DNA from: Candidatus Micrarchaeota archaeon
GTDB lineage: Archaea; Micrarchaeota; Micrarchaeia; Anstonellales; J096
Length of the DNA: 55,129 bases
NCBI GenBank assembly: GCA_964467175.1
Contig: CAYXNY010000038.1
Coordinates: 1 to 55,129, forward strand
Reading direction: 5' to 3'
Part shown: positions 23,252 to 24,808 of the stretch, in pieces
Position numbering within the stretch: the stretch's first letter is position 1
How the letters are laid out: the number at the start of each line of letters is the position of its first letter
Made by a program: the position numbers and the translations under genes
Notes under the pieces: generated by a model
Told to the model about the DNA's origin: nothing
Database searches by the model: none
The model's input: the letters and a program-made list of their open reading frames with translations, nothing else

Positions 23252-24808
23252 ATTCCAGTTGATCCTGCTGGAGGGTACTGCTATCGGAATCCGACTAAGG
23301 CATGCAAGTCTACGCCTGCACTTGTAGGCGTGGCGGACGGCTGAGTAACACGTGGTCAACCTCCCCTGAAGACCGGAACAACCTCGGGAAACTGAGGCTA
23401 ATTCCGGATAGGCCATCTATGCTGGAACGCTTGATGGTTTAAAAGGAGGGCGAATTGGAGCCTTTCCGCTTCAGGATGGGACCGCGGGGGATTAGGTTGT
23501 TGGCGGGGTAACGGCCCACCAAGCCGATAATCCCTAGGGGCCATGGGAGTGGGAGCCCCCAGAGGGACACTGAGACAAGGGTCCCAGCCCTACGGGGTGC
23601 AGCAGCCGCGAAAACTCCGCAATGCGCGCAAGCGTGACGGGGGGATTCCGAGTGATGTTGGCTCTTGCTAACATCTTTTGCCAAGTGTACAAATGCCAAA
23701 TGGCAGTGTAAAGCTTGGCGAATAAGGGTGTGGGCAAGACCGGTGGCAGCCGCCGCGGTAACACCGGCGCCTCAAGTGGTACCCGCGAATACTGGGTCTA
23801 AAGCGCCCGTAGCCGGTTGTGCAAGTCCACTGTGAAATGTTGGAGCTTAACTCCAACGCGTGCAGTGGATACTGCATGACTTGGGAGCGGGGGAGGGTAG
23901 GGGTACGCCCGGGGTAGCGGTAAAATGCGTTGAGCCTGGGCGGACCACCAGTGGCGAACCTTTTTTGGGGTGCCTAAAAAGGTTTCATCCAAAAAAGCGC
24001 TAAGGCGCCTACCCAAAACGCGTCCGACGGTGAGGGGCGAAAGCTGGGGGAGCGAAGGGGATTAGATACCCCCGTAGTCCCAGCTGTAAATGATGCCAAC
24101 TAGATGCTACTGCATCTTTGAGATGCAGTAGCGCCGCAGCGAAGGCGTTAAGTTGGCCACCTGGGGAGTACGATCGCAAGATTGAAACTTAAAGGAATTG
24201 GCGGGGGAGCACCACAAGGGGTGGATGCTACGGTTCAATCGGATACAACGCCGAACACCTCACCAGAGGCGACGGCAGAATGAAGGCCAGGCTGAAGACC
24301 TTGCCAGACAAGCCGAGAGGTGTTGCATGGCCATCGTCAGCTCGTGGTGTGAACTGTCCGGTTAAGTCCGGCAACGAGCGAGACCCATGCCCTTAGTTGC
24401 CAACTCCATCTCCGGATGGGGCGCACTCTAAGGGGACTGCCCGCGTTAAGTGGGAGGAAGGAGTGGGCGACGGTAGGTCCGTATGGCCCGAATCCTCTGG
24501 GCTACACGCGGCATACAATGGGCGGCACAACGGGTTGCCACTCCGAAAGGAGGAGCTAATCCCTGAAAACCGTCCCTTAGTTCAGATCGAGGGCTGCAAC
24601 TCGCCCTCGTGAAGCTGGAATCCCTAGTAATCGCGCTTCATTATAGCGCGGTGAATGCGTCCCTGCTCCTTGCACACACCGCCCGTCAAGTCACCCAAGT
24701 GTGGTTTCGGTGAGGCCCTCCTTTTTGGGAGGCTCGAACCGGGGCTACGCGAGGGGGGCTAAGTCGTAACAAGGTATCCGTAGGGGAACCTGCGGATAGA
24801 TCACCTCC
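23252..24808 (+). rRNA. 16S ribosomal RNA (contains a 45-nt insertion), not linked to 23S
   Basis: 5' end ATTCCAGTTGATCCTGCTGGA and 3' end GGATAGATCACCTCC. Conserved blocks GCAGCCGCCGCGGTAA, GGATTAGATACCC, AAAGGAATTGGCGGGGG and GCACACACCGCCCGTCA. Confidence 0.9.
23959..24003 (+). other. mini-intron in 16S rRNA (relaxed BHB)
   Basis: Interrupts the conserved GTGGCGAA|GGCGCC. Helix CTTTTTT(23960-66)/AAAAAAG(23991-97). 4-bp helix GGCG(23953-56)/CGCT(23998-24001). Bulges AAC and AAG. Shares its core with the tRNA inserts. Confidence 0.7.

Follow-up and report, generated by a model that had tools for sequence, protein, structure and literature searches.

The 16S rRNA gene and its insert

The stretch of DNA analysed here, referred to throughout as the window, comprises 55,129 nucleotides of a Candidatus Micrarchaeota archaeon of the Anstonellales (GenBank assembly GCA_964467175.1, contig CAYXNY010000038.1). 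Its ABCE1 and RuBisCO, by their homologues, likewise place it in this order of the DPANN Micrarchaeota. The window contains a full-length 16S rRNA gene interrupted by a 45-nt insert, which is probably a mini-intron of the bulge-helix-bulge (BHB) type and which, judged by sequence, is of one family with introns in the tRNA genes of the window. This 16S gene is the only one in the window, and Rfam finds neither a 23S nor a 5S gene in the 55 kb.

23252 to 24809, + strand: archaeal 16S (small-subunit, SSU) rRNA gene, full length (Rfam RF01959, 1452.7 bits, model positions 1-1478)
23959 to 24003, + strand: 45-nt candidate mini-intron with BHB-defined boundaries (Rfam alignment, presence or absence in relatives, BHB check)

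A first-pass annotation, made from the letters of the window and its open reading frames (ORFs) alone, had described a conserved segment split as GGCGAA / 45 nt / GGCGCC, and the split is exact at 23959-24003. In the Rfam alignment 46 nt of the gene stand opposite one model position, flanked by GGCGAA and GC; in an alignment to Escherichia coli rrsH, GGCGAAGGCG corresponds to positions 724-733, which puts the insertion point between A729 and G730. There the insert interrupts the universal GGCGAA|GGCG loop, in the GAAG tetraloop of a short hairpin (the h23a loop) that is itself conserved. The archaeal SSU model shows no variation at this site. Both junctions are preceded by AA, which leaves the boundary in the DNA uncertain by up to 2 nt (23957-24001 to 23959-24003). 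The 45-mer (CCTTTTTTGGGGTGCCTAAAAAGGTTTCATCCAAAAAAGCGCTAA) has a single occurrence in the window (23959-23964...24003).

At both the gathering threshold and E<=1, Rfam places no small-RNA or intron family over the insert; its matches in the window are the SSU rRNA, a tRNA-Leu, a sub-threshold tRNA (the tRNA-Phe) and one spurious long non-coding RNA. A group I or group II core finds no Rfam match in the insert even at E<=1, and 45 nt is far too short for one.

Predicted fold and splice sites of the insert

BHB motifs were scored with a coded rule, under which the final bases of exon and intron form a central helix of 4 bp and each strand has a 3-nt bulge that is cut behind its second base, with an intron-intron helix flanking one side of the motif and an exon-exon helix the other. 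Cleavage at this point of the bulge is reportedly an established rule, associated with the 2003 work of Marck and Grosjean. The elements assigned to the insert, and a hairpin that competes with them, are as follows.

23953 to 23956, + strand: exon strand of the 4-bp central helix, GGCG (4/4 pairs, one of them G-U, with intron CGCU)
23957 to 23959, + strand: 5' bulge AA|C (predicted cut after 23958)
23960 to 23969, + strand: 5' strand of the intron-intron helix, CUUUUUUGGG (10 contiguous pairs with 23988-23997)
23988 to 23997, + strand: 3' strand of the intron-intron helix, UCCAAAAAAG (pairs with 23960-23969)
23998 to 24001, + strand: site-specific 3' 'guide', CGCU (pairs with exon GGCG)
24002 to 24004, + strand: 3' bulge AA|G (predicted cut after 24003)
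23957 to 23984, + strand: competing hairpin, which excludes the BHB fold (minimum free energy, MFE, structure; compensatory changes across the family)

The resulting layout, ACCAGU-GGCG-[AA|C]-CUUUUUUGGG ... UCCAAAAAAG-CGCU-[AA|G]-GCGCCU, has the overall 3-4-3 BHB geometry, with CTTTTTT pairing with AAAAAAG inside the insert, and the predicted cuts rejoin GTGGCGAA|GGCGCC, the universal sequence. The pairing of the 3' arm AAAAAAG-CGCT with the insert's own 5' end and with exon GGCG, proposed in the first-pass annotation, is thus present, as is the relaxed BHB with bulges AAC and AAG whose cuts rejoin GGCGAA|GGCG. No other pair of positions in the 16S gene makes as good a BHB candidate, and the geometry is rare by chance: when the insert was shuffled 200,000 times, 28 shuffles gave a 4/4 central helix together with an intron helix of >=5 bp, and none gave one of 10 bp. 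Folded in an 83-nt context, the BHB structure has an energy of -22.3 kcal/mol, within 1.6 kcal/mol of the MFE. In the MFE structure the 5' arm pairs with an internal copy of the 3' arm to give a capped hairpin, in which AACCUUUUU (23957-23965) pairs with AAAAAGGUU (23976-23984) and GG:CC closes a GGUG tetraloop.

Homologous introns in tRNA genes

Three tRNA genes of the window carry introns of the same kind.

3978 to 4160, + strand: tRNA-Ser(GGA), two family copies (37/38 intron at 4016-4062 and T-loop 59/60 intron at 4095-4146)
42923 to 43074, + strand: tRNA-Arg(TCG), T-loop 59/60 family copy at 43009-43060 (in-silico removal and BHB check)
45368 to 45491, - strand: tRNA-Phe(GAA), diverged T-loop 59/60 family copy at 45382-45431 (in-silico removal, hidden Markov model and BHB check)

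ARAGORN run on the unmodified window calls tRNA-Leu only and misses these three; after the T-loop inserts (50-52 nt here, ~45-52 nt across the family copies) are cut out in silico at the BHB-predicted sites, it calls Ser(GGA), Arg(TCG) and Phe(GAA). In tRNA-Ser(GGA) ARAGORN itself calls a 47-nt canonical 37/38 intron, which is the fourth family copy. The T-loop copies have the strict helix-bulge-helix-bulge-helix form (hBHBh'), with the 5-bp T stem as exon helix and a 4/4 central helix (TTCA:TGAA). Seven copies were tested, and in six of them the intron helix has 7-10 bp; in the seventh, at locus L034, it has 2 bp. With the cuts made, the intron falls at 59/60 and the loop reads TTCAAAT again (TTCAACT in L026). 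For the copies in the anticodon loops of tRNA-Ser and of the L035 tRNA-Trp, strict BHB scans gave no convincing motif. The tRNA-Arg(TCG) gene also holds a second, 25-nt canonical intron (~42962-42986), unrelated to the family and kept in its L042 and L049 orthologues.

A hidden Markov model (HMM) built from the four tRNA introns of the window alone, with neither exon bases nor the 16S copy, matches 23957-23997 at E=7.4e-8, the sole non-tRNA match in the window, and the 16S copy is identical to the T-loop copies at 31/37 positions (window repeat family D1). The layout common to the 16S and tRNA inserts, claimed at the outset, is thereby borne out, and on this sequence evidence they are one family. 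The closest relative found, which shares 40/41 positions of the 41-nt 16S core, is the intron of a tRNA-Trp(CCA) at metagenome locus L035; it lies in the anticodon-loop region and not in the T-loop, so that the direction 'from tRNA T-loops', part of the initial proposal, is at most a possibility. As read from the alignment, the intron helix of the T-loop copies extends outward by three base pairs (GAA / GTT) that are missing from the 16S copy, where the exon supplies a GAA at that place.

Likeness of this kind could arise by chance, through low-complexity convergence of T-run/A-run hairpins, or as an assembly artefact. The element is largely T- and A-rich, which makes its arm pairings partly trivial, and most matches to its 20-mer core in a genome collection (below) are bacterial and due to chance. 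Against such an origin stand the E-value obtained from a profile that lacks the 16S copy, the sharing of the GGTTTCATCC spacer and GGGNTGCC loop, and the 40/41 identity to the tRNA-Trp intron; recurrence of the insert in five independent assemblies removes assembly artefact as an explanation. We regard this alternative as essentially refuted already.

Architecture of the family

In all copies a 5' arm, GAACC(C)TTTT.., leads into an apical part of varying length, 2 to ~20 nt. Next come a first 3' arm, paired with the 5' arm, a spacer TTTCATCC (or TTCACGG / TTTCAGCGG), and a second 3' arm, rich in A, which has the 5' arm as its alternative partner. The spacer GGTTTCATCC, which is non-repetitive, and the loop GGGNTGCC are common to the 16S and tRNA copies. 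Where the 5' arm changes, both 3' arms change with it: TTTCTT occurs with AAGAAA and AAGAAG, TTTTTT with AAAAA and AAAAAA, and CCC with GGG and GGG. An automatic alignment of 12 cores analysed with RNAalifold was mis-registered and gave a negligible consensus energy (-0.17 kcal/mol), and hand-registered arm tables were therefore used in its place. These tables, which follow our own registration of few and related sequences and are biased toward pairing, contain double (compensatory) changes at arm positions 4, 6 and 9 of the hairpin and at position 6 of the second pairing.

The segment that follows the second arm is host-specific and complementary to the four exon bases that precede the 5' bulge.

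16S rRNA: 3' segment CGCT, pairs with exon GGCG
tRNA T-loops: 3' segment TGAA, TGAG or TGGA, pairs with exon TTCA
L003 intergenic copy: 3' segment TTCC, pairs with flank GGAA

An exon-pairing 3' end common to the 16S and tRNA copies was accordingly not found. The idea of a modular, retargeted element, advanced in the first-pass annotation, holds in so far as there are a conserved core, five kinds of host site and a site-specific 3' arm; its 'swappable arm' stands as a pattern, that of the host-specific 3' segment, and not as a demonstrated mechanism of arm-swapping.

Presence and absence among relatives

Loci of relatives were found through synteny around ABCE1, and their 16S genes were located with Rfam.

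L007, L009 and L010 (three JGI metagenomes) and L043 (a fourth): 98.3% 16S identity to the window, 45-nt insert present
L001 and L002 (two NCBI metagenome-assembled genomes, MAGs): 97.4% 16S identity to the window, site 729/730 empty, uninterrupted GTGGCGAAGGCGTC

Where present, the insert differs from that of the window by one substitution, in the apical tetraloop (GGGGTGCC to GGGATGCC). The polymorphism that had been called for as a check on the intron interpretation thus exists, with the site occupied in L007, L009, L010 and L043 and empty in L001 and L002. This distribution removes a lineage-typical rRNA expansion segment as an alternative: the insert is absent at 97.4% 16S identity and near-identical where it is present. 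The contig of L053 stops short of site 729/730, hence its 16S gene is uninformative here.

The orthologues of tRNA-Phe and tRNA-Arg in relatives at 81-85% RuBisCO identity all have the 59/60 intron, with diverged or expanded sequence. T-loop 59/60 introns are thus common to these relatives, whereas the 16S copy is missing from genomes at 97.4% 16S identity, which suggests that the 16S copy was gained later than the T-loop introns. Precise loss in L001 and L002 may be the alternative to such a gain.

The 16S gene of L001, and likewise that of L002, has two other 45-nt mini-introns (L001:13146-13190 and L001:14691-14735) at about E. coli positions 330/331 and 1092/1093, the latter a catalogued locus. 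The two copies are nearly identical to each other (ACGCTGTTTGTTCAGGTTTTTCGGARRGGACAAACAGCGGTC) and unrelated to the family in the window, so that in L001 one small intron family is found at two different 16S loci. The copy at 1092/1093 fits the coded BHB rule; the register at 330/331 was checked by hand only. Neither the window nor any of the other loci contains this second family. The same L001 gene also contains two large inserts, at 13797-14553 (757 nt) and 14849-15644 (796 nt), each with an ORF of ~250 aa that has an HTH_3 domain, one with a weak match to DUF559 (Vsr-like endonuclease); neither insert shows a LAGLIDADG motif or an Rfam group I match.

Distribution of the family beyond the window

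A genome collection, without the genome to which the window belongs, and a metagenome collection were each scanned once with the 20-mer core AAAGGTTTCATCCAAARAAG. The genome collection gave 14 matches, 11 of them in bacterial records and evidently due to chance; of the others, L015 and L017, from one archaeal MAG, are clearly related, and L022, from a Methanobacterium MAG, looks like a minimal form. The metagenome scan gave 23 stretches, with approximately seven true family members. L025, L029 and L037 were inspected and look like chance matches; the L029 contig contains a dense cluster of 11 tRNA genes. A viral collection gave no match to the family.

Further T-loop copies are found in tRNA-Arg(TCT), tRNA-Lys(TTT), an Arg(TCG) orthologue and one truncated tRNA, and in-silico removal restores tRNA-Arg(TCT) and tRNA-Lys(TTT). 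Overall, the family occupies T-loop position 59/60 in at least five different tRNAs, and the anticodon-loop region in tRNA-Ser and tRNA-Trp. Other copies are intergenic (L003/L004, L017 and L031) or lie upstream of a ribosomal protein gene (L028). The L003/L004 copy is diverged and stands where the window has unrelated sequence, and it pairs with its 5' flank as GGAA:TTCC.

Several of these loci show more complex arrangements. The orthologous tRNA-Phe of L050 (L050:3454-3630) has an 85-nt T-loop intron, removal of which restores the tRNA, and the opposite strand of this intron carries a unit with the family layout (CTTTGGCCGCCCAAAAGCATTTCATCCGAAAAG), which may be a nested insertion in reverse orientation. 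At L015:1-210 and L017:1-210 (minus strand), contig ends of QQ_201709_bins_14, a MAG that bears the label Thermoplasmata, family units form tandem arrays with other hairpins; those of L015 directly follow what by eye is a tRNA 5' half with anticodon TCG, the 3' half being off the contig and ARAGORN calling no tRNA. L022:5050-5095 and L031 (minus strand, ~1510-1560) hold minimal intergenic forms, AAACCTTT-loop-AAAGGTTTCATCCAAARAAG with loops of 2-3 nt. The family may be wider than Anstonellales, or the L022 contig, binned as Methanobacterium, may be mis-binned. The first 260 nt of L028:1-1461 (minus strand) lie upstream of a gene that, by eye only, resembles one for ribosomal protein S2; there the 5' end of the gene (GGTGAAAGGAAATGAAAAAAGAACAA(CTGCTCTCAAC)) occurs three times, separated by two kinds of ~45-nt hairpin unit, one of which has a GGTTTCATCCAAAAAAG tail; this looks like insertion with a very long direct duplication.

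Proposed splicing of the 16S insert

Two genes of the window encode proteins of the splicing pathway.

26762 to 29560, - strand: RtcB RNA-splicing ligase with intein, 932 aa (Pfam PF01139, E=1e-166; PF14890)
40632 to 41075, + strand: EndA-family tRNA-splicing endonuclease protein, 147 aa (PF01974, 42.6 bits against a cutoff of 27; PF02778)

The RtcB gene lies ~2.8 kb downstream of the insert. Its intein is polymorphic, the L007 orthologue having 932 aa with the intein and the L001 orthologue 475 aa without it, and thus resides in the very ligase that would be expected to join the exons of these introns. In one pairwise alignment to Methanocaldococcus jannaschii EndA (1a79), the 147-aa protein has Asn and Arg at the positions of the catalytic Tyr and His and keeps the Lys, the identity of this triad reportedly being that given by Li, Trotta and Abelson in 1998. 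Replacement of the Tyr and His suggests that the protein is a non-catalytic (beta-like) structural subunit of a heteromeric enzyme. Endonucleases of the heteromeric type accept relaxed BHB motifs (PMC3239211).

We consider that the 45-nt insert is a BHB mini-intron, cut by the splicing endonuclease and followed by joining of the exons by RtcB, with a probability of about 0.8. In the pre-rRNA, the last four exon bases, GGCG, would pair with the 3' tetranucleotide of the intron, CGCU, while the intron halves would form the 10-bp helix (CUUUUUUGGG:UCCAAAAAAG), leaving the bulges AA|C and AA|G. The tRNA-splicing endonuclease would then cut after the second base of each bulge, and RtcB would join the exons at GTGGCGAA|GGCGCCTACC, recreating the GGCGAAGGCG hairpin of E. 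coli positions 724-733. The intron would be released, presumably as a circle with the junction ...GCGCTAA|CCTTTTTT... Splicing is the most likely fate of the insert because its sister T-loop copies cannot stay in functional tRNAs, because the 16S copy keeps the T-loop geometry with a new exon-pairing segment, and because the site is universally conserved and the window encodes RtcB and an EndA-family protein, apparently a non-catalytic subunit.

Several observations weigh against splicing. The exon-exon helix of the 16S motif has only 2 bp, so that the BHB is relaxed and falls short of the strict hBHBh' form, and a broad-specificity endonuclease would be needed to cut it. The sole EndA-family gene in the window apparently lacks the catalytic Tyr and His, and no catalytic subunit is seen in the 55 kb. 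The MFE structure (-23.9 kcal/mol, versus -22.3 kcal/mol for the BHB fold) is the competing hairpin, which masks the 5' bulge. Finally, retained expansions can at times be tolerated in hairpin loops, and the insert lies in one.

The last point leads to the alternative that a DNA hairpin resembling a miniature inverted-repeat transposable element (MITE) landed in the h23a loop and is kept in mature 16S rRNA, the BHB-like pairing being a by-product of terminal inverted repeats. The 5' and 3' arms do resemble terminal inverted repeats of 7-10 bp, and the family has copies outside tRNA and rRNA genes (L003/L004, L017, L031 and, upstream of a ribosomal protein gene, L028) as well as the family-like unit in reverse orientation inside the L050 tRNA-Phe intron. 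Against this, the 3' tetranucleotide is complementary to the exon and not to the element, the cuts restore the universal sequence exactly, and this geometry is rare in shuffles; the sister T-loop copies, which cannot remain in functional tRNAs, obey the same rule. The site, moreover, does not vary in the archaeal SSU model, and close relatives have it empty. Retention in the mature rRNA is on this evidence improbable.

Another alternative is that the insert is excised and the ends are not religated, giving a fragmented 16S rRNA like those produced by bacterial intervening sequences. The cleavage geometry alone is compatible with an outcome lacking ligation, but RtcB is encoded 2.8 kb away, the tRNA copies need ligation for tRNA function, and every characterised archaeal rRNA BHB intron is ligated (PMC4496867, PMC7714728). 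We consider fragmentation very improbable, more so than retention.

Probable mobility of the family

Judged by its range of host sites, the family probably behaves like a mobile element whose copies persist in essential RNA genes only if they can form a BHB there. The copies in DNA outside RNA genes, together with the one reversed unit, favour insertion at the DNA level followed by selection for spliceability. No target-site duplication is seen at the tRNA or 16S copies, and no source was found for the exon-complementary 3' segment. An origin of this segment from a target-site duplication or of the P-nucleotide type was considered and rejected, as the inverted copy lies at the far end of the insert and not beside the flank.

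A broader and more tentative possibility, which we think doubtful at present, is that the family is a dispersed DNA-level mobile hairpin of Micrarchaeota-like archaea that becomes a BHB intron wherever an exon-complementary 3' segment is present or arises, its landing sites being intergenic DNA, the 5' ends of genes, other introns in either orientation, tRNA genes and rRNA genes. Were this so, the window would capture the birth of archaeal introns from a repeat element and their spread to or from tRNA and rRNA genes, and the conserved two-conformer core would serve mobility or the control of splicing.

Comparison with known systems

Small (<50 nt) hairpin BHB introns have been described at 7 of 13 catalogued 16S loci (374, 548, 722, 781, 803, 901, 908, 919, 978, 1093, 1205, 1213 and 1391) in Thermoproteales, Desulfurococcales and Aigarchaeota (Jay and Inskeep 2015, PMC4496867). 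The expectation that such introns belong mainly to Thermoproteales-type lineages is therefore correct for Thermoproteales and is refined by the other two groups. The insert in the window resembles these introns in its length below 50 nt, hairpin form, placement in a conserved 16S segment, BHB at the junction, lack of an ORF and patchy occurrence among close relatives; it differs in being AT-rich, in belonging to a DPANN lineage, the Micrarchaeota, and in its position, 729/730, which is outside the 13 loci (the nearest is 722). In the Thermoproteales 16S survey, introns from different 16S loci were too dissimilar to compare (PMC4496867); in L001, by contrast, one 45-nt family is found at two 16S loci. 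BHB and group I introns have also been noted in DPANN rRNA genes (PMC6125680).

Similar introns in unrelated tRNA genes of Thermoproteales have been described as transposed groups (Fujishima et al. 2010, as summarised in PMC4090602), and the mechanism of tRNA-intron transposition was still unknown according to that review (PMC4090602). Unlike those groups, the present family occurs in Micrarchaeota, and is found in a 16S gene and in non-tRNA DNA as well as in tRNA genes. The study by Fujishima and colleagues from 2010 reportedly concerned tRNA genes only.

T-loop 59/60 tRNA introns and a broad-specificity endonuclease are known in Micrarchaeota (Fujishima et al. 2011, PMC3239211). ARMAN-2 (Ca. 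Micrarchaeum acidiphilum) shares with the window its phylum and the 59/60 intron position, and its epsilon2 endonuclease tolerates relaxed BHB motifs; that enzyme is a 387-aa three-unit protein, whereas the protein in the window is a 147-aa single unit and seemingly non-catalytic, and the ARMAN-2 paper (PMC3239211) describes no rRNA intron of the same family. With MITEs the family has in common that it is short and multi-copy, with terminal inverted repeats (arms of 7-10 bp), intergenic copies and one reverse copy; it differs in the lack of target-site duplication at the tRNA and rRNA copies and in a host-specific 3' end complementary to the upstream flank. No candidate transposase was identified. 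Around related units in L028 there are long direct duplications.

Small hairpin 16S introns, T-loop 59/60 introns and tRNA-to-tRNA transposition of introns are thus already known. A literature search, outside which lay Fujishima 2010 and Tocchini-Valentini 2011, returned no report of an intron family common to tRNA and rRNA genes (or extending to intergenic DNA); nor did it return a report of a 16S intron at site 729 or of 16S mini-introns in Micrarchaeota. The sequence relationships described above suggest movement of a single small intron family between tRNA genes and rRNA genes.

There is as yet no agreed account of how archaea gain BHB introns; transposition among tRNA genes has been inferred in Thermoproteales. 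One recognisable family that occurs in T-loops, anticodon loops, 16S rRNA and intergenic units, and that is polymorphic at ~97% 16S identity, offers a recent and concrete system for asking how BHB introns reach new sites and how the exon-pairing segment arises. In practical terms, these inserts defeat tRNA finders, as with the single tRNA that ARAGORN called here, and their presence in a conserved 16S segment matters for annotation and for the design of primers for DPANN archaea.

Other repeats in the window

A second repeat family, of GC-rich intergenic hairpins, occurs at 9539-9774 and 30448-30644 (for example CGCCAGGGGGGTATTACCCC and GGGGGACGAAGTCCCCC) in three or four copies (families D3, D8, D9 and D11), and similar units (GGGGGACGAAGTCCCC) adjoin the intron-family units in L015/L017. 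Direct repeats of 50 nt at 52212-52261 and 53479-53528 (D14), 98% identical and 1267 nt apart, bracket the ORF at 52203-53501.

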